Positions 3,777-40,828 of a DNA stretch of 44,254 nt are shown here, one piece after another. A program made the position numbers and the translations under genes. Each line of letters begins with the position of its first letter. Within the stretch, counting starts at the first letter, position 1. The notes beneath the pieces are model-generated. The model made no database searches. It saw only the letters and a program-made list of their open reading frames with translations, and was not told where the DNA came from. Source of the DNA: a virus; UHGV virus genome UHGV-1376702; one strand, 5' to 3'.

Positions 3777-3787
3777 GGAGAGTACAC

Positions 3788-10532: not shown

Positions 10533-10564
10533 AGCCTATAGCGTCCTACGGGACGCTATGTGAA
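10533..10564 (+). promoter_or_regulatory. conserved hairpin element, copy B
   Basis: AGCCTAT + perfect 7-bp stem (AGCGTCC/GGACGCT) with 4-nt loop + ATGTGAA; about 25 nt upstream of the start at 10589; compensatory A:T to G:C change relative to copy A. Confidence 0.4.
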
Positions 10565-20989: not shown

Positions 20990-21424
20990 ATGTCGATGTG
21001 TATTGACCACGGGTATAACAAATGCCTTAACAAGAACGGATACCGCCGGGCATGGTATAAGCCGACCAGGCGATTGGAGCTGCTGCATCGGGTGGTGTAT
21101 GCTGAGCATAACGGGCTGGATATAAGGGCGCTGGCTGGCCTGTCTGTTAGACATACCTGCGATAACCCCAGGTGCATTAACCCTAAGCACTTAGTATTGG
21201 GAACGCATATGGATAATATGCGGGACCGTGCAGAGCGCGGAAGGAACCCAGATGTGCGTGGGGATAGGAACCCAAAAGCGCAGTTAACTTGGGATGCTGT
21301 GCAGGATATCAGGGATAACTATATCCCATACAAGAAAGGTATGCGGCAACACTTTGCTAATAAGTACGGTGTAGGTGTACATGTAATTAGTGACGTAATA
21401 AGTAACAGGAGCTGGAATGCCTAA
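20990..21424 (+). CDS. HNH homing endonuclease
   Basis: 144 aa; RBS AAGAGGA; motifs CIDHG, HR, VRHTCDNPRCINPKHLVLGT...N. Confidence 0.8.
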   Translation: MSMCIDHGYNKCLNKNGYRRAWYKPTRRLELLHRVVYAEHNGLDIRALAGLSVRHTCDNPRCINPKHLVLGTHMDNMRDRAERGRNPDVRGDRNPKAQLTWDAVQDIRDNYIPYKKGMRQHFANKYGVGVHVISDVISNRSWNA

Positions 21425-25673: not shown

Positions 25674-25830
25674 GTTATACTACGAGGGGAAACACGATGA
25701 ACTTGAAACTATTCTGGATGCGCTGCGTGAACGAGCACCCAAAACACATCGAAGAACGGTTGAGCATTTGGATTCTCTCATTCACGACAATGCTATGCTG
25801 GATGTAGTAGGGGAGATTCAGGTATGGTAA
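25630..25830 (+). CDS. hypothetical small protein
   Basis: In-frame ATG about 25630 with RBS AGGAGC; overlaps the exonuclease 3' end out of frame; stop overlaps the next HNH start. Confidence 0.3.
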   Translation: MAKMSAKEMSLRAIELYYEGKHDELETILDALRERAPKTHRRTVEHLDSLIHDNAMLDVVGEIQVW

Positions 25831-26273
25831 TGAACACACCTTGTATAGACCACGGTTGCAAAGGCATGGGCCTAGGCTACGCCACTGCTTGGTTTAGGGT
25901 GAACGGGGTTCGGAAGAGCACCACCAGGCACCGGATTGTATTCTATGCGGCACACGGATACTTCCCGGAGGTCGTAGAGCATGTATGCAACAACCCGCGC
26001 TGTATAAACGTGGAACATCTACGTGCAGGTACACATAAAAGTAACGCAGAATACAAGCACGCATGTGGGCGCGGTAATATAGAGGCGGCCACTAGGAAGG
26101 GCACGGATAATGGACGCGCTAAACTGGACGACTCCTTAGTGCGGTATCTCCGACAGATGTACGTGCCTAACGACCGAGAGTGGGGTGCGTCCGCTATAGC
26201 TAGGAGGTTAAATATGGGCGTTTCTAGTACACACAGAATGCTAACGGGGGCAGCATGGCGGCACGTCGTATAA
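25824..26273 (+). CDS. HNH homing endonuclease
   Basis: 149 aa; motifs CIDHG, HR, VCNNPRCINVEHLRAGT; same paralogue family. Confidence 0.75.
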   Translation: MVMNTPCIDHGCKGMGLGYATAWFRVNGVRKSTTRHRIVFYAAHGYFPEVVEHVCNNPRCINVEHLRAGTHKSNAEYKHACGRGNIEAATRKGTDNGRAKLDDSLVRYLRQMYVPNDREWGASAIARRLNMGVSSTHRMLTGAAWRHVV

Positions 26274-26677
26274 CTAGGGGTCAGGTCAGGGCCGTAACAT
26301 TGAAGCTGCTAAAAGAGCAATGTGGGCTGTGTCTAATATGTGGCAAGCCTATAGAGATTACTGCCAAGAGCACCTCTGGGGATGGGCCCGCGCTAGACCA
26401 CTCGCACCGCACCGGACACATCCGAGGGGTGTTGCACCGCTCATGTAACGGGGGTATTGGCCGAGCAGAGTCTGTAATAGGCCGGTGGGTTACAGGGTCT
26501 ATGCAAGATGAGGCGGCCATTGTCGAGGATATGCAGCGTATGGTAGACTATCTACGTAGGCCCGAAACTGAGTTAATTTACTACACACACCGCAGTCCAG
26601 AAGAATTGGCACAGGCACAGAAGCTCAAGGCCCGCAAGGCCCGGGCACGACGCAAAGCACGGGAGACTATTAAATGA
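26255..26677 (+). CDS. endonuclease VII-like (T4 gp49-type) junction-resolving nuclease
   Basis: 140 aa; CGLCLIC ... LDHSHRTGHIRGVLHRSCNGGIG matches the endo VII zinc/HNH-like core; basic C-terminal tail. Confidence 0.65.
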   Translation: MAARRITRGQVRAVTLKLLKEQCGLCLICGKPIEITAKSTSGDGPALDHSHRTGHIRGVLHRSCNGGIGRAESVIGRWVTGSMQDEAAIVEDMQRMVDYLRRPETELIYYTHRSPEELAQAQKLKARKARARRKARETIK

Positions 26678-27192: not shown

Positions 27193-29661
27193 ATGATTAG
27201 CGCCCTGAATACGGTTGTAGTACCAGAGGAAGCACTGGTGAAACGCCAGCTGGAGCTCGAAGAGACCTATAAGATTCGCGGAATCGAGCGGGCACGTAAG
27301 CTGATTACGGACGCATTGCAGAACGGCGGGATTATGAACCTGCCGATGACGCAGCGTATGCTCACCTCGGCATATGAGGTGGCTGCTGCCGCTATCGACG
27401 AGATGCGAAACGTCAAAGTCCCGGGCATTGGTGGTAAGTACCGCCGGTTCCTGCGCTTAGTCCCCTTGGATGTCCTGACCACACTGAGCCTGTGCACAAT
27501 GTTTGAAGCGTTTAGCGTCGCCCCCGGCGAGTCTGCTAGTCGCCGCCAGACTGCGCAGGCGGTAATGTCCGCACTGGGCCGGAACGTGCAGTCAGAGCTA
27601 CTGGCTCTGCAGTTACGCAACGTAGCCCCAGCGTACATGGACCGAGTATATGAGTATCTCACAGAGCGCCGTACGAAGTCCCCTACGCACATCCTGCGTA
27701 CGCTCCGTGCCAGTGCCGAGAATGTGCACTATGGGCACGAGCCTTGGACCAATGCCCAGAACATCTCCGTAGGGCGTCTGCTGTGTGCCGCGGTGTTTGA
27801 GACTGGCTTGTTCCAGTGGAAGACAGGTAGCGGGAACCTGAGCATGCTCTACCCGGCTGATGACGTTATGGAGGCCTTCCAGAAACTGGTGGAATCTGCC
27901 GACACTGTAACGATGAAGCCGCCTATGCTGGTCCCCCCGGTGCAGCACACCACTATGTGGGATGGTGGGTACCTTACTCCTATCGACAACCGCGGTACGT
28001 ACCATAACTCGCACATCGACCGCTCCAGGCTGCGTGAAGTGGCGGAAGCATTTAAGTCCGCGGATGGCATCAAGAAGGCGCTTAATAAGGCACAGGAAAC
28101 CCCATACCGTATTAATAAGCGCATACTGGAACTGGTGCAAGAAGCACGGGCCCTGGGTATTGGGATAGGTATGCCCCGCTCAATACCGGAGCCGAAGCCT
28201 GAGTGGTACTTGGATGGTGTACCAAAAGAGAACTACACCGAAGAAGAACTGGACCGCTTCGGTGAGTGGAAGACGCGTATGTCCCTGTGGTACAGTGCTG
28301 ACCGTAAGCGTGTGTCGCAACTACGCAGCCTTCTGACTACGTTGGAGATGGCAGAGGAATTCAAAGATGAGAAAGCCCTGTACTTCCCGACTTGTGTGGA
28401 CTGGCGCTACCGCCTGTACTTCAAGTCCTCGTTGCACCCGCAGGGTTCTGATTTGCAGAAGGCTCTGCTGGAATTCGGTAGAGGTAAACCTCTTGGAGAG
28501 AGAGGGTTGTTCTGGCTTAAAGTGCACGTCGCCACTTGCTTTGGTTATGACAAAACCCTATTCGAAGACCGCGCAGATTGGGTGGATAAAAATATGGCAG
28601 TTGTCCGCTCAGTTGCAGAGAATCCATTTGATTCGGACGCTTTTAAGCAGGCCGATTCACCGTGGTGTTTCTTGGCAGCAGTGCTCGACCTGGTGGCTGC
28701 TCTGGATTCTCCGTGCCCAGAAGAGTACATCTCCAGAACTCCGGTTGCTATGGACGCCACAAACTCAGGTGGACAGCACCTCTCAGCGCTCCTGAGAGAC
28801 CCTGTAGGCGGTCGTCTGACGAACCTGTACTGGGAAGGTAACGACAAGAAAGCGGACCTGTACATGGACGTGAAGCGCCGCACGGATGAGAAGGTGATAC
28901 TGGACCTGGACAAGGAGGATTTCGTTATCCAGAGCACGTACTGGAGAGAGAACGAAATCACCCGCAGCATGACCAAGCGCCCAAGTATGACCTACTTCTA
29001 CAGCGCCACGGTGCGTAGCTGCAGCGACTACATCTTTGAAGGCGCTTGCGCTGAGGGATACGAGGGTACCGATACTAACAGTCTGTGGAACCTGTCGTGC
29101 TACCTGGCACCGCGTATGCGCGCCGCTATAGAGGAGGCAAACCCCGCTGCTGCGGCAGTTATGGGGTACTTGCAGAATCTCGCTAGACGCGTACCGGCAA
29201 GCCAGCACCTGCAGTGGTATACGCCGCTGGGTGGGCTCGTAATGAACCGTTACACGCAGCGTGAAGAAGTGCGTGTACGTATTGACTGCATGAACCTGTC
29301 AGCGGTACTGGTACACAACCGGGACTTCAAAACTTGTAACAAGCGCAAGGCGGCCTCCGGGATTGCCCCAAACTTTGTGCATAGCCTGGACAGTACGCAC
29401 TTGATGATGGTGCTCTGCGCTGCGGAGGGGTTGGACATTGTGCCTATTCACGACTCGCTGGCTACTCACGCAGCTGACGTCGACACTATGCATAGGCACA
29501 TCCGTGAGCAGTTTGTGCGTCTATATGAAGAGAATGACCTGCTTGGCGATATTACTCGGGCAGCGGCAGCAGCCGGGGCAGACTTGACGGACCTGGACAT
29601 GCCAGAGGTGGGCACTTTGGACATCCGGCAAGTGCTAGAATCCCCGTTCTTCTTCTGCTAA
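27193..29661 (+). CDS. single-subunit DNA-directed RNA polymerase (T7-like)
   Basis: 822 aa; catalytic motifs DATNSGGQHLSALLRD (T7: DGSCSGIQHFSAMLRD) and PNFVHSLDSTHLMM (T7: PNFVHSQDGSHL). Confidence 0.95.
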   Translation: MISALNTVVVPEEALVKRQLELEETYKIRGIERARKLITDALQNGGIMNLPMTQRMLTSAYEVAAAAIDEMRNVKVPGIGGKYRRFLRLVPLDVLTTLSLCTMFEAFSVAPGESASRRQTAQAVMSALGRNVQSELLALQLRNVAPAYMDRVYEYLTERRTKSPTHILRTLRASAENVHYGHEPWTNAQNISVGRLLCAAVFETGLFQWKTGSGNLSMLYPADDVMEAFQKLVESADTVTMKPPMLVPPVQHTTMWDGGYLTPIDNRGTYHNSHIDRSRLREVAEAFKSADGIKKALNKAQETPYRINKRILELVQEARALGIGIGMPRSIPEPKPEWYLDGVPKENYTEEELDRFGEWKTRMSLWYSADRKRVSQLRSLLTTLEMAEEFKDEKALYFPTCVDWRYRLYFKSSLHPQGSDLQKALLEFGRGKPLGERGLFWLKVHVATCFGYDKTLFEDRADWVDKNMAVVRSVAENPFDSDAFKQADSPWCFLAAVLDLVAALDSPCPEEYISRTPVAMDATNSGGQHLSALLRDPVGGRLTNLYWEGNDKKADLYMDVKRRTDEKVILDLDKEDFVIQSTYWRENEITRSMTKRPSMTYFYSATVRSCSDYIFEGACAEGYEGTDTNSLWNLSCYLAPRMRAAIEEANPAAAAVMGYLQNLARRVPASQHLQWYTPLGGLVMNRYTQREEVRVRIDCMNLSAVLVHNRDFKTCNKRKAASGIAPNFVHSLDSTHLMMVLCAAEGLDIVPIHDSLATHAADVDTMHRHIREQFVRLYEENDLLGDITRAAAAAGADLTDLDMPEVGTLDIRQVLESPFFFC

Positions 29662-29666
29662 AAATT

Positions 29667-29685
29667 TAATGTTACAGGAGTAGGA
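29667..29685 (+). promoter_or_regulatory. conserved motif copy 2 (TAATGTTACAGGAGTAGGA); candidate phage-RNAP promoter
   Basis: Identical 17-mer core immediately downstream of the RNAP gene and directly abutting the ATG at 29686. Confidence 0.35.
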
Positions 29686-30126
29686 ATGAAGTTAAAACAC
29701 ACTAGTAAAACTTCCGACTACACTCTCAAGGTTCTGTATAAATCTGACGACGTTACAGACGCAGTGAAGCAACTGCACGAACTGGGCCATGGCATTAGTC
29801 GGGGCCTGGCTCCAGAGCAGCACTACTGGAGGGTGTTGGGAAGTATACTGGGTAAACAGTATATACTAGGAGTCTATGACTCCAAAGGCGACTTAGTCGG
29901 TGCTGTCAGCTACTACCCAGAGGCTGTAGAGGACTGTCATTACGTAGAGCCTGTGCTGTATACAGACTTCTTCGTATTGAAACCGGACAACGGCGCGGCA
30001 GTGTCTGTGATTATGCAGGGCCTGCACGCAATAGCCAAGTGCATGCGCGCTGGGCGTATCGCCATTAGCCGAAGCACGTCCAGTAACACGTACAAAACAA
30101 CTTATCATTTAGTGAGGTCAGAATGA
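29686..30126 (+). CDS. hypothetical protein
   Basis: 146-aa ORF, A+T-richer than neighbours; no secure motif. Confidence 0.5.
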   Translation: MKLKHTSKTSDYTLKVLYKSDDVTDAVKQLHELGHGISRGLAPEQHYWRVLGSILGKQYILGVYDSKGDLVGAVSYYPEAVEDCHYVEPVLYTDFFVLKPDNGAAVSVIMQGLHAIAKCMRAGRIAISRSTSSNTYKTTYHLVRSE

Positions 30127-30395: not shown

Positions 30396-31991
30396 TTGGA
30401 ACAAAAAGCAACATTAGCAGAACTCTTTAAGAAGGACCAGGACGCGGGCGTCTTGGATGCCTCTGAGAAGTTCGCGCAGTGGACACTCAGCACTATCTTT
30501 ACCCGGGACGATTCCCTGGACGGTAGACGCAGACCGCTAGAGCGTGACTACCAGAGCACCGGAGCGCAGCTGGTCAACACTGCAGCCACTAAGATTGTAG
30601 GCGCACTGTTCCCGCAAGGCACTAGCTTCTTCCGGTTCTCCAAGAGTTCGGACCTGGACGAGTTCATTAGTTCGCTGGGTAGTGCAGCTACAGCAGAATC
30701 TAAGCTGGCCGAGGTCGAGAACACAGCGTCACAGAAAGTATTTGAGAAAGACGGTTATGCTGCGAAGTTGCAAGCTGTGAAGCTGCTGCTGGTTACAGGT
30801 AACGCGTTGGAGTATATTGATGAGCGGACAGGTAAATCCATCGTCTACTCAGTCCGTAACTTTACCGTTCGAAGGGATGGCAGCGGGAACGTCCTGCGAC
30901 TCATTATCAGAGAGCGCGCAAGCGTCCAGGACCTGCCAGAGAGTTTCCAGAACACCTTCTACCGTGACAAAGACCCATACGGCGACGTTGATATCTACAC
31001 TGCCGCTTGTCGCAAGGTTAAGCGGACAGAGGAAGGCGTAGAGGTAGTAAGCTACGAGGTGTACCAAGAAGCAGACGGACACCGCATTGGGGACAGCAGC
31101 ACCTATCCTGAGCTGGAGCTTCCATACAACGTGCTGGTGTGGAACCTTGTTAGCGGTGAGCACTACGGACGCGGCTTGGTAGAGGACTACGCCGGGGACT
31201 TCGCTAGATTATCAGTGCTGTCAGAAGCGTTAACTAACTACGAAGTTGAGTCTGCGCGGTTAATTCCGCTGGTTGACGCAAGCTCCGGGCTGGACGTGGA
31301 CGAATTCGCAACGTCGGAGACGGGCGAGGCTGTGCAGGTGGGTGGTGGTGGTTCCAACGGGAACAACAAGTCCCCAGTCACTGCTTACGAGGGCGGCTCT
31401 GCCCAGAAGATTCAGTGGATTGCCAGCAACATTCAGATGCTCGAACAGAAACTGTCTCGTGCGTTTATGTACACCGGTAACTCACGGCAAGGTGAGCGTG
31501 TCACGGCTTACGAGATTCGCCAGAATGCCAAAGAGGCGGAAGCCGCTATGGGCGGTGGGTTCAGTATCCTGAGCGACACCTGGCTGCGTAAGCTGGCGTA
31601 CCTGTATACTGCACTGGTGTATCCTCGCTTTAAGCTTTATCTCAGCGAAGGTGTAGTGAACATCAACGTTACGGTGGGTACTTCTGCACTGGCTAAAGCC
31701 GCGGCGGCGGACAAGCTGTTAGAGGCGGCACAATCCATGCAGCTGGCTATCCCGGTGCTTGAGCAGATTACTCCGCGCTTCAACAAAGATGCGTGCGTAG
31801 ATTGGTACTTCGACGCCTACGGTATCGTCAGCGAGCCGTTCATGTACACCGAAGAGCAGCTGCAGCAGAAGCAACAGGTTCAGGATGCGTCTGCCGATGT
31901 ATCCGCGGGTGCAGCGCAGGACCAACTCCAGGGCTTGACAGCAGCAGACCCGACAGTAGCAGGTAAGCAGCTGGGCTTATTACCAAGTTAA
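30396..31991 (+). CDS. portal (head-tail connector) protein
   Basis: 531 aa (TTG start after TAAGGGGG); size and position (first large gene of the structural module, before scaffold and capsid) match T7 gp8-type portal. Confidence 0.8.
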   Translation: MEQKATLAELFKKDQDAGVLDASEKFAQWTLSTIFTRDDSLDGRRRPLERDYQSTGAQLVNTAATKIVGALFPQGTSFFRFSKSSDLDEFISSLGSAATAESKLAEVENTASQKVFEKDGYAAKLQAVKLLLVTGNALEYIDERTGKSIVYSVRNFTVRRDGSGNVLRLIIRERASVQDLPESFQNTFYRDKDPYGDVDIYTAACRKVKRTEEGVEVVSYEVYQEADGHRIGDSSTYPELELPYNVLVWNLVSGEHYGRGLVEDYAGDFARLSVLSEALTNYEVESARLIPLVDASSGLDVDEFATSETGEAVQVGGGGSNGNNKSPVTAYEGGSAQKIQWIASNIQMLEQKLSRAFMYTGNSRQGERVTAYEIRQNAKEAEAAMGGGFSILSDTWLRKLAYLYTALVYPRFKLYLSEGVVNINVTVGTSALAKAAAADKLLEAAQSMQLAIPVLEQITPRFNKDACVDWYFDAYGIVSEPFMYTEEQLQQKQQVQDASADVSAGAAQDQLQGLTAADPTVAGKQLGLLPS

Positions 31992-32005: not shown

Positions 32006-32848
32006 ATGGATAACGTAGAAAACGGTCAGAACGTAGAAACTACACAGGTAGAGAACCAAGGTGGCCCTAAGATTCCGGGCCTAGGTGCTCCCCTTAGCGC
32101 CCCGAACAATCAAGGCGTGCAGGATGCACAGACCCCTACCCAGCAGCAACAGGGCAAAGATTCCCCTGACCCTGCTAAGATTCCTCTGGATATCGAAGCC
32201 CTAAAAGCGGCCCTGGATAAGGGTGGCGATAGCGCTAAAGAGCAGCCCCAGGAGCTGGCTAAGACAGGCAACCCGACGATTGATGCCGGTGTAGCTATGT
32301 TGCAGAAAGTCTCTGGGTTAACTGACTCTGATATGGTGCGGGCACTTGGTAAGGCCCTGGAGTATCAGGACCCTAACCTAATCGATACGGCCTTCATTAA
32401 GGAACGTTTCGGAGAGCACGCTGCTTATGCAGAGTTGCTGGCTAAAGCGTACCTGGAAGACCAGGTTGGTCAAGCCACCAAAGCAGTACAAGAAGCTTAC
32501 GATATCGTGGGCGGTAAGGAGAACTGGGAGGTAGCAGCGCAGCTGTTTAATTCCAAGGCCCCTGAACCTCTGCGTAACGCAGCTCGTGTACTCGCTAACT
32601 CGGGTGAGCTCAAGCAGGCCGCTGAGTTGGTAGCAAGCTTCTGCCGGGATATGGGTCTTATCAAGACACAGAACCCAATGGTACGAGGCGTGGCCAGCAA
32701 CAATGCACTGTCTGCTGCGGAATTCCGCGCAGAATATACCAAACTCCGTCAGGAAGCGGGCAACCGTAGCTTGGCGTCTCCACAGTTCAGTCAACGTTAT
32801 AACGATTTGCTCGCACGCCGTGAAGCTGGTAAGCGCGTAGGTCTTTAA
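32006..32848 (+). CDS. scaffolding protein
   Basis: 280 aa, acidic and Ala/Gln-rich helical protein between portal and capsid genes. Confidence 0.7.
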   Translation: MDNVENGQNVETTQVENQGGPKIPGLGAPLSAPNNQGVQDAQTPTQQQQGKDSPDPAKIPLDIEALKAALDKGGDSAKEQPQELAKTGNPTIDAGVAMLQKVSGLTDSDMVRALGKALEYQDPNLIDTAFIKERFGEHAAYAELLAKAYLEDQVGQATKAVQEAYDIVGGKENWEVAAQLFNSKAPEPLRNAARVLANSGELKQAAELVASFCRDMGLIKTQNPMVRGVASNNALSAAEFRAEYTKLRQEAGNRSLASPQFSQRYNDLLARREAGKRVGL

Positions 32849-32873
32849 TTTTATTTATAAAGGAAACTAAAGC

Positions 32874-33893
32874 ATGGCCAACACTATTTATAATGGCAAC
32901 CTGACTCGTCCGCACTGGGGCGGCGCAGACTCCGACGTAGACGTTCACCTGGAAGTGTACCAGAACGAAGTGGATACCCGCTTCCAGTACCAGGCTCTAT
33001 TCCTGGGCCTCTCCAGCCAGCGCTCTATCAGCGGTTCCAACACCTACCGTATTGACCGACTGAACACCTCCTCGGTGAAAGGTCGTCGCTCCGGTGAGGC
33101 GCTGGATAGCACTCCGGTCCGTAACGATAAGATGATTATCGTGGTGGATACGGTGCTGTATATCCGTAACCCGATTGACTACCAGGATGACTGGACCGGT
33201 CCGGACTTCCTGACTGAGATGGGCCAGAACAACGGCTCGGAGTTCGCGGAGACCTTCGACCAGGCGCACCTGATTCAGCTCATCAAGGGCCGTTCCTGGG
33301 TTGCTCCGGCGCACTTGAAACCGGCGTTCAACGACGGTATCGAGGTAGGCGCAGCTATCCTGGTTCCGGGTACCACCACCGCCACTCAGCTGACCCAGGC
33401 TGAGATGGAGGCGAACGCCATGAACATCAACCTGGCCCACAAGGCTGGTATTGACGAACTCATCAAGCGTAAGACCCCGCTGGCGGACATGATTACCCTG
33501 GTGGACGTCGATACCTATTCGCGTCTGCTGGAGCATCCGAAGCTCCTGAACCTGGACTTCGGCGCGTCCAACAATGATGGTTACAAAGACCGTCGTGTAG
33601 TGAAGATGAACGGTGTACCTGTAGTTGAGTGCACCGAGTTCCCGACCGCTGCTGGTACGCACCCGCTGGGCTCCGCTTACACCATCACCGCTGACGACGC
33701 GCTGTGCCGTATGGTGACTTTCAGCAAGTCCAAGACCCTGGTGACTGTTGAGGCTAAGCCGTTCACCTCCCGTATCTGGGATGATGAGCGAGAGTTCAGC
33801 AACGTGCTGGACTGCTACGCAATGTACAACATCGGTCTGCGTCGTCCGGACACCGCTGCAGTGACCAAGTTCACCTTCACCACCAAGTCCTAA
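32874..33893 (+). CDS. major capsid protein
   Basis: 339 aa; RBS AAGGAAA; co-linear resemblance to T7 gp10A (e.g. KMIIVVDTVLYIRNPIDYQD versus T7 KVITIDGLLTADVLIYDIED); followed by a strong terminator. Confidence 0.85.
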   Translation: MANTIYNGNLTRPHWGGADSDVDVHLEVYQNEVDTRFQYQALFLGLSSQRSISGSNTYRIDRLNTSSVKGRRSGEALDSTPVRNDKMIIVVDTVLYIRNPIDYQDDWTGPDFLTEMGQNNGSEFAETFDQAHLIQLIKGRSWVAPAHLKPAFNDGIEVGAAILVPGTTTATQLTQAEMEANAMNINLAHKAGIDELIKRKTPLADMITLVDVDTYSRLLEHPKLLNLDFGASNNDGYKDRRVVKMNGVPVVECTEFPTAAGTHPLGSAYTITADDALCRMVTFSKSKTLVTVEAKPFTSRIWDDEREFSNVLDCYAMYNIGLRRPDTAAVTKFTFTTKS

Positions 33894-33904
33894 TTGGAGG
33901 TTCA

Positions 33905-34087
33905 ATGGCAGTAATCGCTACGTTCGGTCTGGAGACTCTCCGGGCCAATGCAGCTCAGCGGGAGGCGGTTAAGGCCGCCACCGATGTAGCGAAGAACATC
34001 CAGGTGGCTTCGGTTGAATCTGGCCGCAAGGCTACCAAGAAAACCCGTAAGGCGGCTGACGCAGCCGCTGATACTACGGAAGAGTAA
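33905..34087 (+). CDS. hypothetical small protein in capsid transcription unit
   Basis: 60 aa; RBS GGAGG 7 nt upstream; Ala/Lys-rich. Confidence 0.4.
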   Translation: MAVIATFGLETLRANAAQREAVKAATDVAKNIQVASVESGRKATKKTRKAADAAADTTEE

Positions 34088-34136
34088 ACAGTTAACGGCA
34101 ATTGAACCTGCCTAGTTCCGTTTGATGAGGAAACCT

Positions 34137-34469
34137 ATGAAAGATATCCGTAACATTATAACCGGTATGACCCGCATGGAGGCCATAACCCAAGGTGGTG
34201 TAGAGTACGGCACAGAGGTGTGGCACAAACGCTGCACTGGGGACAGTACAGCCAATGCTCTGCGCATCATCTCAGAGGCCATGTTAAAGCAGGCTGTACC
34301 TGTTAGGGTTGAGCAGTACGTAGTAAGCGGCACCCACACCCGGGAACCTAAGCACGTGTTTGATTTGTGCCGATATCTGGTGGATGTTATGGGTCTTCGG
34401 GGTTTTACGTTTAACGCAGCAGCTAGAACTGTTGAGTGTAACGTGTTCGAGCCTGTTAACAAACAGTAA
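34137..34469 (+). CDS. hypothetical protein in capsid transcription unit
   Basis: About 110 aa from ATG 34137 (RBS GAGGAAACC); track ORF 34122 starts at an upstream TTG; four Cys residues; directly followed by the terminator. Confidence 0.45.
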   Translation: MKDIRNIITGMTRMEAITQGGVEYGTEVWHKRCTGDSTANALRIISEAMLKQAVPVRVEQYVVSGTHTREPKHVFDLCRYLVDVMGLRGFTFNAAARTVECNVFEPVNKQ

Positions 34470-34474
34470 TACGC

Positions 34475-34512
34475 GCCCCTGGTGCCTTCGGGTGCCAGGG
34501 GCTTTTTTTTTG
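34475..34512 (+). terminator. strong rho-independent terminator (UUCG tetraloop hairpin + U9)
   Basis: CCCCTGGTGCC-TTCG-GGTGCCAGGGG (11-bp stem with two G-U pairs) followed by nine T; analogous in position to T7 T-phi after the capsid gene. Confidence 0.75.
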
Positions 34513-34556
34513 TCCCTGTCTTAAGGGTCCAAGGGGTCTTTAATAGAGGAACAAAT

Positions 34557-35117
34557 ATGAGAGAATTAGACGCTGTGAACCTGACGCTGGAAGCCCTGGG
34601 GGAGTCCCGCGTTATGGACATCAACACCAGCAACCCAAGCGCTGGGTTAGCTCGCTCTGCGCTTGCGCGCAATCGGCGCGGGCTGCTCAGCACAGGGTTC
34701 TGGTTTAACGTGGTCGAGCGTGAAGTTGCCCCTACTGCTGACGGCTTTATTAAAGTGCCGTGGAACCAACTGGCCGTGTACGATGCTGGCTCTGACTCCA
34801 AATACGGGGTCCGTGATGGGAACCTGTACGACCTTATGGAGCAGAACCAGTACTTCGACAGCTCCGTTAAGCTCAAAATAGTCCTGGACTTGGACTTTGA
34901 GGACCTGCCGGAGCATGCGGCTATGTGGGTGGCTAACTACACCACTGCACAGGTGTATCTAAACGACCTGGGCGGCGACAGTAACTACGCTAATTACGCA
35001 CAGGAAGCTGAGCGCTACAAGAGCATGGTGCTGCGTGAGCATCTGCGCAACCAGAGATTCAGCACCAGCAAGACCCGCTTTGCTCGTAGAATCCGCCGCG
35101 CTCGTTTTATGGTTTAA
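34557..35117 (+). CDS. tail tubular protein A (T7 gp11-like)
   Basis: Start refined to ATG 34557 (RBS AGAGGA); the track's 5' extension from 34482 runs through the terminator hairpin. About 186 aa; N-terminus parallels T7 gp11. Confidence 0.75.
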   Translation: MRELDAVNLTLEALGESRVMDINTSNPSAGLARSALARNRRGLLSTGFWFNVVEREVAPTADGFIKVPWNQLAVYDAGSDSKYGVRDGNLYDLMEQNQYFDSSVKLKIVLDLDFEDLPEHAAMWVANYTTAQVYLNDLGGDSNYANYAQEAERYKSMVLREHLRNQRFSTSKTRFARRIRRARFMV

Positions 35118-35126
35118 GGAGAGGTT

Positions 35127-37487
35127 ATGGCGCGATCATTAGAAGGTACTATTCAGAGCTTGCTGCAGGGCGTTTCCCAGCAGGTTCCGAGAGAGCGCCA
35201 ACCAGGACAACTGGGGGCGCAGCTGAACATGCTCAGCGACCCGGTTTCCGGTATCCGCCGCAGACCCCCGGGTGAGATTGTCTGGGAAAGCACGATTGAT
35301 AATCCAGGGCTTGATTCCCTGTTCACTGAATACGTAGAGCGTGGAACTGACGGCAGGCACCTGCTGATTAACACCAGCAACGGTAACTGGTGGTTACTGG
35401 CTAAGAATGGAAAGACCATCCTTAACTCCGGAAAAGACCCGTACTTTATTACCACCGTGGGTCAGACCTCTTTGCAGACCGCGAGTATTGCTGGACTGAC
35501 TTATATCCTGAATACGGAGATGGCCCCGAACACAACCGTGGACAATACGGGGCGTATTGACCCAGGCACCACTGGGTTCTTCTACGTTAAATCTGCAGCA
35601 TTCCAGAAACGCTGGAACATCACTGTTACATCTGCCGGGGTAGATTACTCCGGGGACTACACCGCCCCAGCTGCTGGCAGTACCAGTGGTAACGCTGAGG
35701 AGGTATCAGGTGCCTACGTTGCTCAGCAGCTGCGAGACTCTCTTGTAGCGAATGGATTGCCAGCTGGGAACGTTAGCGTACGCGGCGCATACTTGTTCTT
35801 CTATGGGTTGAGCAACTGTGTGGTATCCTCCGACGCTGGCGATACTTATGCTGGGGTATCCAACCAGTCTCGTGTAGACCAGGAGCAGGACCTACCTGCA
35901 CAGCTCCCAGCGCAAGCTGACGGGGCGATGTGTCGTGTAGGTGCAGCCTCGTCTGAGACAGCGTGGTACCAGTTCAGCTACAGCACCCGCACCTGGTCTG
36001 AGGTGGGAGCGTACGGCAGCATCACCAAGATTACGAACATGCCCCGAGAGCTTGCTGCAGATGACAACATTATTGCGCGGGATTGGGAGGGGCGTTTAGC
36101 TGGTAACGACGACAATAACAGCGACCCCGGATTCGTGGAGAATGGATACATCACCGGCATTGCAGCTTTCCAGGGCCGCTTGGTTCTGCTTAGTGGTAGC
36201 TCCGTGGATATGTCTGCCTCAGGTCTGTACCAGCGCTTCTACCGCTCCACTGTGACGTCTCTGCTGGATACGGACCGTATCAGCATTAGCTCTGCGTCTG
36301 CACAGGATTCTGTGTATCGTACCGCTGTGCAGTTCAACCGGGACTTGGTCCTGTTTGCTAACAGCATGCAGGCGGTTGTGCCGGGTTCAGCGGTACTCAC
36401 CCCCACTAACGCAAGTATTAGCATCACCAGCACCTACGAGTGTGATAGCCGTGTGACTCCGGTAATGGCGGGGCAGACGGTAATCTACCCGAATAAGCGC
36501 AACAACAACTACGCGGGTATACTGGAGCTAATCCCATCACCTTACACCGCGGCACAGTACACTACACAGGATGCCACGGTGCACCTACCCCGGTATATCC
36601 CAGGCAGGGTATTGCAGATGCAAAACTCCAGTGTCACCAATATGGCCTTCTCGCGCATGTCTGGAGAGCGTAATAGCCTGCTGGTCTATGAGTTTATGTG
36701 GGGTGGGAGTGATGGTGCTAAGATGCAAGCGTCGTGGCATAAATGGACGTTCCCATATCCAATCCTGAGCGTGCAGGCGCTGGAGGATGAGGTGTTCTTG
36801 TATATACAAGGGCCCAGTCCCAGCAACAAGCTTTTGATTGTGTCTATGGACCCGCGTGAAGGTTATCAGCTGGGTTCGGAGTACCGCGAAGCCTACTCGG
36901 ATTTGCAGAAGCAAGTTCAAGTGCAGGATGGGGTGTTTACTGTTCCGGCGGTACTGCGCCCCGTCGGGTGGGCTGACCGTTACAAGGAAGAGCTTATCTT
37001 AACGTACCTACCCAGCAACCCTATGGGGCCTACTGAGGTTGGCATCAAGGAGATTGCCGGGGAGAACACCCTACGGGTTGTGCGCGGCGTACCTGATGGC
37101 ACTTATGTAATCGGGAGACGTTACCGTAGTACGTTCACGCTAACTACGCCTATTCTACGGGACCAGAATGACAAGCTCGTGGGGAGTGGACATGTGCGCC
37201 TGCTGCGTCTGGACGTGGCAGTACGTAACTCTGGGCACTTCGATGTACAGGTACTAGACACCCCTCGGGACGTCAATTGGGGTGGGGAGCTAACTGGTAT
37301 CCTGATGAACTCAAAGGAGCTGACGCTTGGGCAGGCCCTGCGTATGGACCTGGCTACGATTACCGTGCCATGTCGTACCAACGCAGACACAACCGAGGTG
37401 TCACTATTTACTGACGGTTCTATGGAACTGAACGTGTTGGATATATCGTACATCCTGCGCTACAACCAACGCAGACGGAGGATTTAA
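35127..37487 (+). CDS. tail tubular protein B (T7 gp12-like)
   Basis: 786 aa; size and position after tail tube A match gp12-type nozzle protein. Confidence 0.8.
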   Translation: MARSLEGTIQSLLQGVSQQVPRERQPGQLGAQLNMLSDPVSGIRRRPPGEIVWESTIDNPGLDSLFTEYVERGTDGRHLLINTSNGNWWLLAKNGKTILNSGKDPYFITTVGQTSLQTASIAGLTYILNTEMAPNTTVDNTGRIDPGTTGFFYVKSAAFQKRWNITVTSAGVDYSGDYTAPAAGSTSGNAEEVSGAYVAQQLRDSLVANGLPAGNVSVRGAYLFFYGLSNCVVSSDAGDTYAGVSNQSRVDQEQDLPAQLPAQADGAMCRVGAASSETAWYQFSYSTRTWSEVGAYGSITKITNMPRELAADDNIIARDWEGRLAGNDDNNSDPGFVENGYITGIAAFQGRLVLLSGSSVDMSASGLYQRFYRSTVTSLLDTDRISISSASAQDSVYRTAVQFNRDLVLFANSMQAVVPGSAVLTPTNASISITSTYECDSRVTPVMAGQTVIYPNKRNNNYAGILELIPSPYTAAQYTTQDATVHLPRYIPGRVLQMQNSSVTNMAFSRMSGERNSLLVYEFMWGGSDGAKMQASWHKWTFPYPILSVQALEDEVFLYIQGPSPSNKLLIVSMDPREGYQLGSEYREAYSDLQKQVQVQDGVFTVPAVLRPVGWADRYKEELILTYLPSNPMGPTEVGIKEIAGENTLRVVRGVPDGTYVIGRRYRSTFTLTTPILRDQNDKLVGSGHVRLLRLDVAVRNSGHFDVQVLDTPRDVNWGGELTGILMNSKELTLGQALRMDLATITVPCRTNADTTEVSLFTDGSMELNVLDISYILRYNQRRRRI

Positions 37488-37488
37488 T

Positions 37489-38076
37489 ATGTGGTGGATG
37501 GTTGCGGCCATGGCCGCTAAGACCGTTCTGGGGCAGGGTGCTCAGATTGAAGTGTCCAAGGCCAGGAACAAGGCTGTGATTCAACAGACAGCCAAACAGC
37601 TAAACGACATCGCGCTACAGCGCGCCCAGTCCAGGGACCGGACTGAGGTGTCTCTGTTTAACATTCAGCAGCAGAAGCTGCAAGCACAGAGCCAAGTGGG
37701 ACTACAAGCAGCAGCCTCCGGTACTATGGGGGCCTCTGTTAAAGACGCCGTAGCCACAGTGAACACTGTAGCCGGGCGACAAGAGGCCAGCGTACGTGAC
37801 CAGCAGGCAACTCAGGAAGAGGGTTTCCGTCTAATGACGGACAAGGCCGTGGACAGCGGCCTGGCTAACATGGACATGGAGGACCCCTACGATAACATGT
37901 TTAACTCATTGCTGAGTGTTGGGGCATCTGCCGTTGGACAGTACGCTGGTAACGCTGCGTCGTCTACTGACTCTGGTAGCTCAACACCCGGAAGTGGTGC
38001 AGCGGCTACTCAGAACATGGCGTCCTCCTATGATTTATGGGGGAGCAAAGGTAACAGCTCAGTTCATACGTGGTAA
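37489..38076 (+). CDS. internal virion protein (gp14-like)
   Basis: 195 aa; hydrophobic N-terminus (MWWMVAAMAAKTVL); first of three consecutive internal-core genes. Confidence 0.6.
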   Translation: MWWMVAAMAAKTVLGQGAQIEVSKARNKAVIQQTAKQLNDIALQRAQSRDRTEVSLFNIQQQKLQAQSQVGLQAAASGTMGASVKDAVATVNTVAGRQEASVRDQQATQEEGFRLMTDKAVDSGLANMDMEDPYDNMFNSLLSVGASAVGQYAGNAASSTDSGSSTPGSGAAATQNMASSYDLWGSKGNSSVHTW

Positions 38077-38093
38077 CTTAAGAGGAATGTCAA

Positions 38094-40778
38094 ATGCCTG
38101 TGATTCAACCCAGTAGACAGGGGTTAAATATCGGAGGAGTGCAACTGCAGTCCAACGATGTTAGCTTACCGTCAACGGTAAGTGAGGTGTCTGTTGATAC
38201 CTCCAAAGCAAAACGCCTAGCTGCCCTGTCAGGGTTCGTGCAGGACTTCGGCGTAGGGTTTGACGAAGCAGTAAAAGAAAACGCTGCAGCCGCCACGGTG
38301 CGCGGCGCAATGGATGCCCAGGGCGCAGTAGATGCAATGGCTTCCAAAGATGAGGCTGTACAGAAGCAGAACATCTTCGTACGCGAGGCCTATCAGGATG
38401 GCTACGTATCCGCCGCTGCATACGACTCTCTAGCCAAATGGCGCACGGATAGCATCGCACGAGCTAAGAAAGCTGCTGAGTCTGGTCTGACTGACGAGGA
38501 GTTCCAGCAGCAAGAGCAAGAGCACGTACAGTCAATGGCAGACAAGCTCGGGATGTATCTCCCGGACATGTCCAAACAGTCTGCCACGAATATACTGCAG
38601 CAGCTCCGTGCTACGAGCATGGCGAACTATACAGCCTTCCAGAAAGGGCGCGCGGCGTTTGCCGTGGCTCAGGCTGACCGCGCACTTGACCGTGGCCTCA
38701 GCTCGTCCAGTGATGAGTTCTATCAGCGTCTACAGGCAGGACAGGGTGCCGCCGCGCAGATGTCTATCAAGACCGGCTTAGACAGCATCCTGGCTGCTGA
38801 GCACCTGGACAAGAGCAAGAAGCTGGACCGGGCCAAGCAGTATCTGGTCAGCGTAGCGCAGCAGACTCAGGACCCGCTGGTAATCAACCAGCTGCAAGGA
38901 CTGGCTACCAAGGAACTCGGGGTTAACTCAGTGGACGTCAACGCGGCTCTGTATCAGGAGTTCAAGCGCGCTGGTGCTCAGATTGAGACGCAGGCCCGTT
39001 TTGAAATCTCTGACACAATCTCTTCCTTAGAGGGGCAGACTCCTGAGCAGCAGGAACAGACTATGGCGCGCATTCGTAGTCGTGTCATTGAGCTGTCGGC
39101 ATCGGACGTGCTCAGCGCTGGAACCAGCATGGAGTTCTGGAACAAGGCCCAGACCATTCGTGAGAAGGCAGCGGACACCCAGGCATTGCGCACAGCGATT
39201 ACTGGGAACATGCCAAGCTCCACCCTGGCGGGGATGTACAAGGGGGACCTGGGTAAGGCTCGCAGCGAGCTGCTCAAGAGCTTTCCGGATACCCCGGAAG
39301 GGAACCTGCAGCTGCTGGCATACGGAAGCAACAGCAAGGATGCGTGGGCCGTCAACGAGGCGCACAAGCGTATGTCTTCGGACATGGCACGTACACTGAC
39401 TACGCTGGACCAGCTCGGTGAGGACGGTGAGGTTTCCCGTGAGAACGTCAGCAGCATCAACTTGTGGGCACAGGCTTATAGTACCAGTACGGACTTAGGT
39501 AAGATGGCGCTGCTGTCTGAGGTACCGTCTGAGTGGCAGGGGGTGGTGCAGAAAGCTATCGCACAAAACCCGAGCAATGCCAGCGATACTATTTTGGATG
39601 ACCTGCGCCGCCAGGCACGTAACAAGGCCAGTGGGCGCTACAGCAATATCCAGAGTAACCCAACTGACAAGATGGTGGACCCTAGTGGCACCAGCAACTG
39701 GTTCAGTTTCTTCGGTGATGCCGACGCTCAGCGCCAGGAAGCGCGCGCTGCTATGGAAGAGGAGTATCGTTATACGTACAGCCGCAATCCGGAATCTCTG
39801 GTAGGTAAGGATGCTGAGGACATCAACACGATGCTCAAAGGCAACATCCAAGCCCGTAAGCTGGAGCTGGAGATTGCAGGCACACCGAGGCACGTGTATC
39901 TGCCTGCAGGTACCTCTCTGCAGTCTATCATGGGCGACTACAAGGGCGACCAGGAGCAGTTCAAGGCTACTCTGCAACAGCAGATTCAAAACCAAGTCCA
40001 GGCCATCACCGACCCCAGCAACATGGAACGTGTAGTGGTGCAGGCTGCCACAGCAGGCAACGCGGGTCAGAACATGACCGTAACCGTGTTCGACAAGAAG
40101 GGCACATTCCAGACTATGTCTGTGAACCTCCGTGACGTTCAGGCTACTGCGCAGGCTGCGTACGATTCGGCACTGGCTGGGGATATGAAGATTGGCAGCG
40201 AGCAAGTGGGCGTACGTCCTGCCACCTTCTACGACCACGACAATGGGCGCGCTGTCAGCGTACAGGTCAACGGTCGTAACGCGGTGGGGCTGGAACCATC
40301 GCTGTTTAGTGACATCCTCGCCACCACTATGAAGTTCGAAGGGTTCCGAGAAGGCAAGGGCAGGGGTAGCGTAGGCTTCGGTCTGCACGTTAACTCGGGC
40401 ATGCCTGTCCCTCAGAAAGTAACCATTGACGACGGTATCAGTATCCTTAAATCCTCTATGGAGAGGCAGTACGTTCCGAACGTGCAGAAGCAACTCAAGG
40501 GGCAGGGTTTGAATGCCTCCGATGAGGCGTTAAAGGTTATGGTGGACCTGAACTATCACGGTGGTAACGGTAGCTCTGGTCCTGTAGCAGAGGCGATGGC
40601 ACAGGTACGTAAGGCTGCCAAGTCCCCGGTGGGGGCGTATCAGTATCCTGTATCTGAGGCCCAGGGTAGGGCTTGGCAAGCGCTGAGGAATACCCCGGCG
40701 TACAAGCAGGCCCAACCTGAGCGTAAGAAGTACCTGGAACAAAACCTACGTGATTGGCTCTTTGAGGCAACACACTAA
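38094..40778 (+). CDS. internal virion protein with C-terminal lysozyme-like domain (gp15-like)
   Basis: 894 aa; helical Gln/Ala-rich body; C-terminal segment MKFEGFREGKGRGSVGFGLHV resembles a lysozyme-type E...G..G.G core (inference). Confidence 0.65.
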   Translation: MPVIQPSRQGLNIGGVQLQSNDVSLPSTVSEVSVDTSKAKRLAALSGFVQDFGVGFDEAVKENAAAATVRGAMDAQGAVDAMASKDEAVQKQNIFVREAYQDGYVSAAAYDSLAKWRTDSIARAKKAAESGLTDEEFQQQEQEHVQSMADKLGMYLPDMSKQSATNILQQLRATSMANYTAFQKGRAAFAVAQADRALDRGLSSSSDEFYQRLQAGQGAAAQMSIKTGLDSILAAEHLDKSKKLDRAKQYLVSVAQQTQDPLVINQLQGLATKELGVNSVDVNAALYQEFKRAGAQIETQARFEISDTISSLEGQTPEQQEQTMARIRSRVIELSASDVLSAGTSMEFWNKAQTIREKAADTQALRTAITGNMPSSTLAGMYKGDLGKARSELLKSFPDTPEGNLQLLAYGSNSKDAWAVNEAHKRMSSDMARTLTTLDQLGEDGEVSRENVSSINLWAQAYSTSTDLGKMALLSEVPSEWQGVVQKAIAQNPSNASDTILDDLRRQARNKASGRYSNIQSNPTDKMVDPSGTSNWFSFFGDADAQRQEARAAMEEEYRYTYSRNPESLVGKDAEDINTMLKGNIQARKLELEIAGTPRHVYLPAGTSLQSIMGDYKGDQEQFKATLQQQIQNQVQAITDPSNMERVVVQAATAGNAGQNMTVTVFDKKGTFQTMSVNLRDVQATAQAAYDSALAGDMKIGSEQVGVRPATFYDHDNGRAVSVQVNGRNAVGLEPSLFSDILATTMKFEGFREGKGRGSVGFGLHVNSGMPVPQKVTIDDGISILKSSMERQYVPNVQKQLKGQGLNASDEALKVMVDLNYHGGNGSSGPVAEAMAQVRKAAKSPVGAYQYPVSEAQGRAWQALRNTPAYKQAQPERKKYLEQNLRDWLFEATH

Positions 40779-40828
40779 CTAGAGGCCCTCCGGGGCCTCC
40801 CCTTATCAAAATTCTTTTAGGAGATATT

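Follow-up and report, generated by a model that had tools for sequence, protein, structure and literature searches.

The closest described system is that of phage KP34. The KP34 RNA polymerase has a strong promoter, S1 (TAATGTTACAGGAGTA), which was identified by in vitro transcription and 5'-RACE (Lu 2019, PMC6834552), and the position of S1 directly after the RNA polymerase gene was likewise shown experimentally in KP34 (PMC6834552). The template design of that study assumed that a class I hairpin halts the KP34 RNA polymerase in vitro (PMC6834552). A terminator between p43 and p44 was published in 2015 for "Kp34likevirus" (PMC4411677). In phage fHe-Kpn01, the product of g43 was detected by LC-MS/MS in purified particles and is listed as "PPAP yes" (PMC7291057, Table S2).

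The other useful comparison is with T7. The original prediction for the DNA that we studied held that the T7 capsid gene is followed almost directly by the terminator T-phi. In fact, 10A stops at 24004 and T-phi is at 24210, so the two are ~200 nt apart, and most of this gap is taken up by the 10B extension in the -1 frame (end at 24162).

We analyzed a viral genome of 44,254 nt, UHGV-1376702 (the window). It belongs to a Klebsiella Drulisvirus (KP34-like) and is complete and permuted. In a nucleotide search, the locus matched 234 Klebsiella phage records and had 96.5% identity to Klebsiella phage RCIP0106. ORF60 and ORF110, the two small genes of interest, are in the region where the head-gene operon of this KP34-like Drulisvirus ends. 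The relevant features of the window are as follows:

3402-3776: homologue of decoration protein gp6 of PDB entry 23sf (E = 2.9e-72)
3788-3970: homologue of decoration protein gp5 of 23sf (E = 2.5e-29)
29614-29633: weak promoter W (match to KP34 promoter)
29667..29682, + strand: KP34-type strong promoter S1 for the phage RNA polymerase (TAATGTTACAGGAGTA; exact match, 0 expected by chance)
32874..33893, + strand: major capsid protein gene, 339 aa (PHROG 267, major head protein, E = 2.5e-97)
33896..33900, + strand: Shine-Dalgarno sequence GGAGG of ORF60, 4 nt 5' of its ATG (read from the sequence)
33905..34087, + strand: ORF60, 60 aa (KP34 gp43, fHe-Kpn01 g43, PHROG 7403; from PHROG match and pN/pS)
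34088..34469, + strand: accessory cassette of 382 nt, comprising a 5' leader and ORF110 (from comparison with relatives)
34127..34131, + strand: Shine-Dalgarno sequence GAGGA of ORF110 (read from the sequence)
34137..34469, + strand: ORF110, a 110-aa accessory protein of an uncharacterized Autographiviridae family
34475..34511, + strand: intrinsic hairpin terminator (from its fold, a match to a published terminator, and its retention in relatives)
34557..35117, + strand: tail tubular protein A gene, the first gene 3' of the terminator (Pfam PF17212 Tube, E = 8.7e-25; PHROG 446)

Two genes with their own ribosome-binding sites had been described between the capsid stop and a strong terminator, and, apart from minor corrections, the sequence bears this out. 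We confirm the two genes and the terminator, which are mostly already annotated and are ordinary for a KP34-like phage. In particular, calling the genes "extra" and "unknown" overstated their novelty: ORF60 is KP34 gp43, the terminator was published in 2015, and ORF110 is in 17 GenBank records. The capsid protein matches the "major capsid protein gp17" of PDB entry 23sf across residues 1-339 (E = 1.4e-222), and its gene has a pN/pS of 0.15. No tRNA or ncRNA was found within the region. A tRNA-Ile is annotated 3' of the capsid gene of phage PhiM1, but ARAGORN does not reproduce it.

The window contains copies of KP34 promoters (exact S1 at 29667 and 41572, S2 at 8241, and W at 29614), where the chance expectation is 0; all of these promoters were defined experimentally in KP34. 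S1 is identified as a promoter by its homology to the experimentally mapped one. The copy at 29667 is immediately 3' of the RNA polymerase gene and is probably the start of the head operon, including ORF60 and ORF110. The claim that both genes belong to the capsid transcription unit is borne out by this layout: S1 is at 29667, the next copy is not until 41572, and a conserved terminator is 3' of both genes.

The terminator has a stem at 34475-34502 and a run of nine T at 34503-34511. The UUCG loop and the U9 tract are as originally described, but the stem is not the 11 bp that had been reported: we counted 12 pairs (9 G-C, 1 A-U, and 2 G-U). Its minimum free energy is -26.5 kcal/mol (z = -4.15 versus shuffled sequences), and it ranks first among the + strand terminator candidates of the entire window. 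It is identical to the terminator of KP34, SU503, and SU552A (PMC4411677, Table 3), and we found it in nearly all of the Drulisvirus loci that we examined. As expected of an analogue of T-phi, it separates the capsid gene from the tail genes, and no strong promoter follows it directly.

These features suggest how the locus might be expressed. The phage RNA polymerase would start at S1, directly behind its own gene, and the transcript would cover two small genes, the portal, the scaffold, the capsid, ORF60, and, in this strain, ORF110. The conserved hairpin would then halt most of these head-operon transcripts. The tail and internal-core genes (34557-41571) do not have a strong promoter of their own and are therefore probably expressed by read-through, so the terminator would set the ratio of head to tail expression, as T-phi does in T7. 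Attenuation and read-through are our inference, drawn from T7 and the lack of promoter matches; our literature search did not find a transcriptome for any Drulisvirus. Overall, we give a probability of roughly 55% to a single explanation that combines an attenuated head operon, a head-associated ORF60, and ORF110 as an optional cotranscribed cassette.

ORF60 corresponds to KP34 gp43, which is annotated and belongs to the core genes of the genus. ORF60 begins 11 nt after the capsid stop, with its own GGAGG and ATG; this offset is constant in nearly all of ~55 Drulisvirus loci, and the 5' spacer, TTGGAGGTT(C/A/T)A, is almost invariant across 51 relatives. ORF60 aligns with PHROG 7403 from end to end (residues 1-60 on profile positions 1-60 of 60; E = 4e-39), and tblastn found homologues in 249 phage records. 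Its identity to relatives is about 83% to 98%. Comparing the relatives for presence or absence, as had been proposed, gave a different answer for each gene: ORF60 is across the genus, in every Drulisvirus locus examined, while ORF110 is in about 7% of relatives. KP34 gp43 and fHe-Kpn01 g43 are the same gene as ORF60, of 60 aa and at the same position, and the terminator is identical. There is no material difference from the KP34 locus, except that here the ORF110 cassette parts ORF60 from the terminator. Other genera have counterparts at the same position that begin with MA(V/L/I)(I/L)..(F/I)G and have a Lys-rich tail; for three of these, shuffling gave p < 0.0005 to 0.003. In PhiM1, a hairpin directly follows the capsid gene and there is no ORF60-like ORF, which means that some lineages can do without the gene.

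The product of ORF60 (6.3 kDa) has a single long amphipathic helix and ends in a basic tail that is rich in Lys and Arg. In the AF2 monomer model (pTM 0.27), which we compared with the helix-turn-helix hairpin that dimerizes into a four-helix clip in capsid decoration proteins, a helix is predicted at residues 2-31 with a pLDDT of 70-76, and another, of low confidence, at 42-58. Neither ORF60 nor ORF110 had a match in Pfam, NCBIfam, or PDB in sequence and profile searches. Given its absence from the deposited chains, ORF60 is probably outside the ordered icosahedral lattice. The detection of g43 in fHe-Kpn01 particles proves translation, not a structural role: 29 of 56 fHe-Kpn01 proteins were flagged as particle associated (PMC7291057), and therefore some of these are carry-over. 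ORF60 may be an abundant head-associated protein without symmetric order or else an assembly helper. If it is head associated, then it is probably internal and associated with DNA or scaffold, which we propose on the basis of its composition and its absence from icosahedral models only. The original suggestion of an abundant late accessory protein stays reasonable, from the promoter layout, and the LC-MS/MS data place g43 in particles of fHe-Kpn01.

ORF110 has 110 amino acids if it begins at the ATG, while the mechanical ORF, from TTG at 34122, has 115. The ATG is the start, as all of the homologues begin with MK(D/N)I. ORF110 is present, and annotated, in 17 of ~250 related GenBank genomes and is in only 2 of the IMG/VR Drulisvirus loci that we fetched. 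In relatives without the cassette, the ORF60 stop runs directly into the terminator (GAGTAA followed by TACGCGCCCC). In the window, the same GAGTAA is followed by ACAGTT...AACAGTAA and then by TACGCGCCCC, so the insertion is precise. Because the cassette fills exactly the space from the ORF60 stop to the terminator, ORF110 would be cotranscribed with the head operon as an optional 382-nt unit. The leader of ORF110, TTGAACC...TTTGATGA(G/A)GGAA, is shared with its homologue in Proteus phage 309, which is at the same locus. In SP6-like phages and in PhiM1, other homologues are flanked by primase/helicase and DNA polymerase.

ORF110 matches PHROG 6703 and PHROG 25669 (E = 4e-15 and 1.8e-13), but only the C-terminal domain of these profiles is covered (positions ~113-217 of 229 or 234). 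The gp10 of phage K1-5 is 36% identical to ORF110 by tblastn. More broadly, SP6-like gp10 (of K1-5 and K1E), PhiM1_17, and PHROG 6703, 25669, and 18700 are 30-37% identical to ORF110; the homologous part is either the C-terminal ~100 residues of SP6-like gp10 or a stand-alone version of ~100 aa. The SP6-like gp10 family and ORF110 share the motif R-C-T-G-x-(S/T)-T-A...G-F-T-F. We considered whether CTG(K/R)(S/T)T might be a P-loop, but the Klebsiella versions have D or H in place of the Lys, which rules out a Walker A motif. The SP6-like gp10 genes are in the DNA-replication module and often encode an N-terminal SH3-like domain. In contrast, ORF110 stands alone, without the SH3-like domain, in the late head operon. 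The predicted model of ORF110 is of moderate quality (pLDDT 73), and its fold matches are generic winged-helix DNA-binding domains. Foldseek against PDB gave no match below E = 0.4, and a fold search against BFVD gave only uncharacterized phage proteins. A winged-helix-like fold is thus weakly predicted. ORF110 may be a nonessential protein that binds nucleic acids or interacts with the host, possibly in anti-defense.

The slot between the capsid and tube A genes is a hot spot for accessory genes in the relatives. One of them (L026) has, between its capsid gene and ORF60, a Tad2-like gene (PF11195, E = 1.3e-22). About 20 loci have an HNH_3+AP2 endonuclease 3' of the terminator. We had taken the ~460-nt insert after the terminator in these ~20 relatives to be noncoding, because it had no listed + strand ORF and no Rfam match, but it encodes this HNH_3+AP2 homing endonuclease, and the stop of the endonuclease gene overlaps the ATG of tube A. 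A Pfam search did not find PF11195 or PF13392 in ORF60 or ORF110, whereas the cargo of the relatives does match. Classic morons carry their own promoter and terminator. ORF110 is like a moron in being present or absent at a fixed intergenic site where the cargo varies (Tad2-like gene, HNH endonuclease, or ORF110). Unlike classic morons, it has no recognizable promoter of its own and shares the promoter and terminator of the operon; in particular, 34088-34136 contains no match to a KP34 promoter and no sigma-70-like site.

We considered several other explanations for these genes. Both ORFs are short, and ORF60 is Ala rich and of low complexity, so one or both might be chance open frames in an untranslated 3' region. 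This is refuted by the substitution pattern. ORF60 has a pN/pS of 0.21 (38 distinct alleles), compared with 1.1 and 2.4 in the other two frames, and ORF110 has a pN/pS of 0.10, compared with 1.3 and 7.1. The variable sites are mostly at third codon positions (31 of 57 in ORF60 and 32 of 42 in ORF110). Both genes are under purifying selection. Furthermore, both are preceded by Shine-Dalgarno sites, both match PHROG families, and peptides from a homologue of ORF60 have been detected, all of which leaves next to no probability for chance ORFs. A more specific candidate role, which was part of the original prediction, is that ORF60 is a decoration or cement protein on the exterior of the shell. 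ORF60 is directly 3' of the capsid gene and is coexpressed with it, its homologue g43 is in purified particles, and it is small and helical, as is the ~6-kDa alpha-claw decoration protein of PhiM1. [quoted passage not shown] However, they are encoded 3' of terminase, have no sequence similarity to ORF60, and are present in solved capsids. In PDB entry 23sf, whose capsid is nearly identical to that of the window, the two decoration proteins are gp5 and gp6, and their homologues in the window are at 3402-3970, 3' of terminase, rather than at ORF60. Entry 8eld (Gp47 and Gp48) gives the same picture, and the decoration genes of PhiM1 are likewise 3' of terminase. The homologue of gp5 in the window, a 60-aa decoration protein, does not align with ORF60, and no PDB chain is matched by ORF60 or by the profile of its family. 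(A literature search did not find a paper for 23sf.) We dropped this idea, which is largely refuted; it is very unlikely that ORF60 is a decoration or cement protein.

ORF60 might instead encode a C-terminal extension of a minor capsid protein that forms by -1 frameshifting, as in T7. The gap in T7 is mostly the 10B extension, and therefore ORF60 sits in the slot of the 10B tail, just 5' of the late terminator. In both phages, ~55-60 codons in the -1 frame lie directly after the capsid stop, are rich in Ala, Lys, Thr, and Glu, and end just 5' of the main late hairpin terminator, which attenuates transcription of the tail genes in T7 and probably does so here. In the window, this frame is open for 39 codons 5' of the ATG of ORF60. 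Also, KP34 virions show an unexplained 42-kDa band beside the 39-kDa capsid band, for which the authors suggested possible frameshifting. The C-terminal half of ORF60 resembles the 10B tail in composition, with an end-to-end alignment. However, the overlap zone (33788-33893) contains no slippery heptamer (X XXY YYZ) and no homopolymer of at least 3 nt. Just 0-13 codons 5' of the ATG, 20 of 51 relatives have an in-frame stop, which in 11 is a TAA directly before the ATG. ORF60 also has its own, conserved GGAGG and ATG, unlike 10B, and its counterparts in other genera are in the 0 or +1 frame. The similarity to the 10B tail had E = 5e-5 by BLAST without composition correction, but it is mostly compositional, with p = 0.02 after shuffling, and it is not significant for other members of the family. 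Homology of ORF60 and 10B is thus not demonstrable from the sequences. We rejected a -1 fusion of capsid and ORF60 on the absent slippery site and the in-frame stops, and frameshifting as in 10B is highly improbable. For ORF110, the alternative is an anti-defense (counter-immunity) gene in a highly expressed late slot. This gene is patchy among relatives, L026 has a Tad2-like anti-Thoeris gene in the same intergenic slot, and in SP6-like phages and PhiM1 members of its family are found with other small accessory genes of the early or middle regions. On the other hand, it has no similarity to known anti-defense families (Pfam, NCBIfam, and PDB were all negative), counter-defense proteins would be unusual at late, capsid-level expression unless they were packaged or late acting, and the fold matches are to generic winged-helix domains. 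An anti-defense role would be guilt by location, which is weak evidence, and we consider it unlikely. A broader version, to which we give very little credence, is that the small post-capsid gene of KP34-like phages and neighboring genera is a free-standing counterpart of the 10B tail and that ORF110 is a new late anti-defense or DNA-binding factor. The first part would follow from the shared slot, the -1 frame in both Drulisvirus and T7, and the resemblance in length, composition, and C-terminal end. ORF60 would then be a disordered capsid-associated appendage, either surface exposed or interior, that is supplied in trans. With the second part, the slot, because it holds a Tad2-like gene in one relative, would be a recognizable landing pad for counter-defense cargo.

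The value of these findings is modest, and they will not surprise a specialist. ORF60 is a conserved, particle-associated 6-kDa protein in a well-studied genus of phages, and ORF110 is a member of a broad uncharacterized family; both are cheap targets for knock-outs. For the engineering of therapeutic Klebsiella phages, the slot between capsid and tube A tolerates insertions of 100-500 nt. Payload genes would fit there naturally, since the slot is within the most strongly transcribed operon or directly follows it.

There are also implications for annotation. Some records label ORF60 as decoration, "capsid and scaffold," or "transcriptional regulator," none of which should be used; the true decoration genes are those at 3402-3970. 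Finally, the "capsid" CDS in GenBank MT360680.2, which overlaps ORF60, is a frameshifted poor-quality sequence and not a natural fusion.

The locus at 32800-35200 matched 268 phage records, 234 of which are from Klebsiella phages, and its identity to Klebsiella phage RCIP0106 is 96.5%. The matching records that are classified belong to Drulisvirus (Autographiviridae, Slopekvirinae), and the map of open reading frames (ORFs) indicates that the window is a whole KP34-like genome, circularly permuted.

Features of the window
1546-3402: terminase
3402-3776, + strand: decoration gene, 124 aa, near-identical to "decoration protein gp6" of PDB 23sf (E = 2.9e-72)
3788-3970, + strand: decoration gene, 60 aa, near-identical to "decoration protein gp5" of PDB 23sf (E = 2.5e-29)
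8241-8259, + strand: strong promoter S2, match to Lu et al. 2019
27193-29661: RNA polymerase (RNAP)
29614-29633, + strand: weak promoter W, match to Lu et al. 2019
29667-29685, + strand: strong promoter S1, first copy, 6 nt past the RNAP stop
30396-31991: portal
32006-32848: scaffold
32874-33893: capsid
33905-34087, + strand: ORF60 (60 aa), 11 nt past the capsid stop, with GGAGG 4 nt upstream of its ATG
34137-34469, + strand: ORF110 (110 aa), with GAGGA 5 nt upstream of its ATG
34557-35117: tail tubular protein A (tube A)
35127-37487: tube B
41572-41590, + strand: S1, second copy, within a long internal-core ORF

The original prediction placed two small genes with their own ribosome binding sites between the capsid stop and a terminator, and both genes, with their Shine-Dalgarno sites, are indeed there. 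Across 38 alleles of ORF60, pN/pS was 0.21, versus 1.1 and 2.4 in the other two frames; for ORF110 it was 0.10, versus 1.3 and 7.1, and for the capsid gene it was 0.15. Variable sites are concentrated at third codon positions. Mechanically, ORF110 would begin at a TTG (34122) and encode 115 aa, but all homologues open with MK(D/N)I, so we consider the ATG to be the start. The terminator has the expected UUCG loop and run of nine T, but its stem (34475-34502) has 12 pairs, including two G-U, rather than 11. Its folding energy is -26.5 kcal/mol (z = -4.15), and no comparable candidate was found elsewhere on the + strand of the window. Given the substitution pattern, the Shine-Dalgarno sites, and the terminator fold, this arrangement is not a chance pattern. 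All three elements (ORF60, ORF110, and the terminator) had been annotated or published before; KP34, SU503, and SU552A were reported to have an identical terminator, between KP34p43 and p44 (PMC4411677, Table 3).

The paper that described the terminator found no late promoter (PMC4411677), but Lu et al. (2019, PMC6834552) later defined the promoters of KP34 RNAP using 5'-RACE and in vitro transcription. These are S1 (TAATGTTACAGGAGTA), which lies directly behind the RNAP gene and has a second copy downstream; S2 (TGATGTTACAGGAGTA); and W, within the RNAP gene. The window holds the complete set, in the order S2, W, S1, S1, where none would be expected by chance; a relative with 3 mismatches lies at 20951. 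From the positions of the S1 copy at 29667 and the terminator, capsid, ORF60, and ORF110 belong to one unit. Thus, the prediction that both genes lie within the capsid transcription unit was sound, and it now has a promoter. Between 34557 and 41571, where the tail and core genes lie, matching to KP34 promoters found no strong promoter; we infer that these genes would depend on read-through of the terminator, as T7 genes 11-12 rely in part on read-through of the late terminator T-phi. We found no Drulisvirus transcriptome in the literature. The first gene of the head operon (29686-30126, + strand) encodes 146 aa, has no match in Pfam, and agrees in length and position with fHe-Kpn01 Gp38, which was reported to be toxic to E. 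coli (PMC7291057).

The T7 capsid gene was said to be followed almost directly by T-phi. Instead, about 200 nt separate the 10A stop from T-phi, and they hold the -1-frame tail of 10B, the frameshift-extended capsid protein; ORF60 occupies the equivalent slot. We considered whether ORF60 is a 10B-like tail of the capsid protein. It is in the -1 frame, which is open for 39 codons upstream of it, and KP34 virions contain an unexplained 42-kDa band, ascribed to possible frameshifting by the authors who described it. However, there is no slippery heptamer or homopolymer where the capsid gene and the ORF60 frame overlap, and the -1 frame is closed in 20 of 51 relatives, 11 of which have TAA directly before the ATG. 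Furthermore, the counterparts of ORF60 in other genera use different frames, ORF60 resembles the 10B tail essentially in composition, and one capsid-ORF60 "fusion" in GenBank is a sequencing artefact. In the record for Klebsiella virus 2019KP1 (MT360680.2), the "major capsid protein Gp10A" coding sequence (703-1734) runs through the capsid gene out of frame and continues into ORF60; this record appears to contain sequencing frameshifts.

The proposal of a decoration or cement protein is contradicted by solved structures. The capsid protein matches "major capsid protein gp17" of 23sf (E = 1.4e-222), as well as Gp37 of 8eld/8em6, 8vb0, and 9s9b. The products of 3402-3776 and 3788-3970, just past the terminase large subunit, match the two decoration proteins of 23sf and also Gp47 and Gp48 of 8eld; these are the capsid decoration genes of this phage. 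No similarity was detected between ORF60 and the 60-aa decoration protein, and neither ORF60, two distant counterparts, nor the family profile matched any PDB chain. Thus, in two solved relatives the lattice consists of capsid and two other proteins, and ORF60 is very probably not a decoration or cement protein. In Pectobacterium phage PhiM1, a 6-kDa alpha-claw and a 17-kDa alpha-paw protein clip capsomers at the 2-fold axes (PMC11440229), and they are comparable to the products of 3788-3970 and 3402-3776. The 8vb0 match, a 327-aa "gp38," agrees with the PhiM1 capsid gene in both length and gene number. The paper's numbering appears to be 91 minus the GenBank numbering, which would make alpha-claw and alpha-paw PhiM1_47 and PhiM1_48, just past the terminase.

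Comparison with relatives, which had been suggested as a check, found ORF60 in every Drulisvirus locus among 80 IMG/VR loci retrieved using the capsid protein, and in 249 phage records by tblastn. Its match to PHROG 7403 (E = 4e-39) is full length, and its homologues are named "hypothetical protein" or carry clearly transitive labels. In the ancestral layout, the capsid stop is followed by 11 nt, ORF60, 5 nt, the terminator, 45 nt, and tube A. In relatives at greater distance (capsid identity 65-83%), an ORF of 42-94 aa usually occupies this position. These counterparts share an N-terminal MA(V/L/I)(I/L)x(T/S/K)(F/I/Y)(G/S/T) and a Lys/Ala-rich tail with an acidic end. An HMM of the Drulisvirus set recovered one of them at E = 1.8e-5 and gave weak hits to others; in shuffle tests, three had p values of <0.0005, 0.0005, and 0.003, and two had values of about 0.05-0.07. 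PhiM1 has no ORF60-like gene, and a UUCG hairpin directly follows its capsid stop. GenBank annotates a tRNA-Ile between its capsid and tube A genes (JX290549, 25840-25937), where ARAGORN found no tRNA.

In fHe-Kpn01, LC-MS/MS on purified particles marked the ORF60 homologue, g43 (26312-26494, 60 aa), as particle associated (PMC7291057, Table S2). Since that study marked 29 of 56 proteins in this way, the detection shows translation and co-purification, not a structural role. In the AF2 model (pTM 0.27), a long helix (2-31; pLDDT 70-76) is joined by a linker to a basic segment of low confidence. By elimination, and from its composition, we infer that ORF60 is an abundant head-associated protein without icosahedral order. 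It may be internal, associated with DNA or scaffold, or else an assembly helper.

The same comparison found that ORF110 is variable: of about 250 GenBank phages with the locus, 17 carry its cassette (>90% identity), as do 2 of the IMG/VR Drulisvirus loci. The cassette is 382 nt (34088-34469) and lies exactly between the ORF60 stop and the terminator, with junctions ...GAGTAA/ACAG...CAGTAA/TACGCGCCCC; cassette-free relatives have GAGTAA/TACGCGCCCC. At synonymous sites, ORF110 copies differ almost as much (pS = 0.21) as the capsid genes do (0.27), which is evidence against one recent acquisition. In Proteus phage 309 (Novosibovirus), the corresponding locus carries a homologue of 47% identity, preceded by a similar 5' leader and followed by a hairpin of its own. 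Repeated loss from an ancestor that had the gene is as plausible as repeated gain.

Searching 1.8 billion representatives with a profile yielded 99 family members. Some stand alone, and others have N-terminal extensions that look SH3-like by eye. Homologues include the C-terminal half of gp10 of SP6-like phages (K1-5, K1E), placed between primase/helicase and DNA polymerase, and stand-alone proteins of ~100 aa such as PhiM1_17. ORF110 had no match in Pfam, NCBIfam, or PDB sequences, and ten family members had nothing significant in Pfam. Our best guess is a non-essential nucleic-acid-binding or host-interaction protein.

The slot from capsid to tube A is an accessory-gene hot spot, and for this reason ORF110 is better regarded as optional cargo than as head machinery. 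The locus of one close relative (IMGVR_UViG_2974616332_000001, ~3535-3798; L026) has an 86-aa Tad2-like (anti-Thoeris) gene (PF11195, E = 1.3e-22) between capsid and the ORF60 homologue. Another ~20 loci, including L012, L017, L019, L023, L024, L027, L039, L044, L046, L047, and L049, have an insert of ~460 nt between the terminator and tube A, which encodes a 155-aa HNH_3+AP2 homing endonuclease. It opens with MREL, as tube A does, and ends in a TGA that overlaps the ATG of tube A. The copy in L017 is frameshifted, L033 retains only a 95-nt remnant, and L023 has a further 166-nt insert.

Elsewhere in the window, four paralogous HNH_3 homing-endonuclease genes (15868-16305, 17787-18242, 20990-21424, and 25824-26273, all + strand), some with a C-terminal HTH, are spread over the replication module and explain the direct-repeat families D1, D2, and D8. 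A 32-nt palindrome-containing motif, AGCCTATAGC(A/G)TCCTA(T/C)GGG..., occurs at 9744-9775 and 10533-10564 (+ strand); it was proposed to be a phage promoter, with nick sites as an alternative (Eriksson 2015), but it is not a promoter for KP34 RNAP (Lu 2019). The 11-mer GCGCTTCCTGT is repeated four times in tandem at 7929-7972 (+ strand), ~270-310 nt upstream of S2 and, judged by KP34 coordinates, near the left end of the genome.
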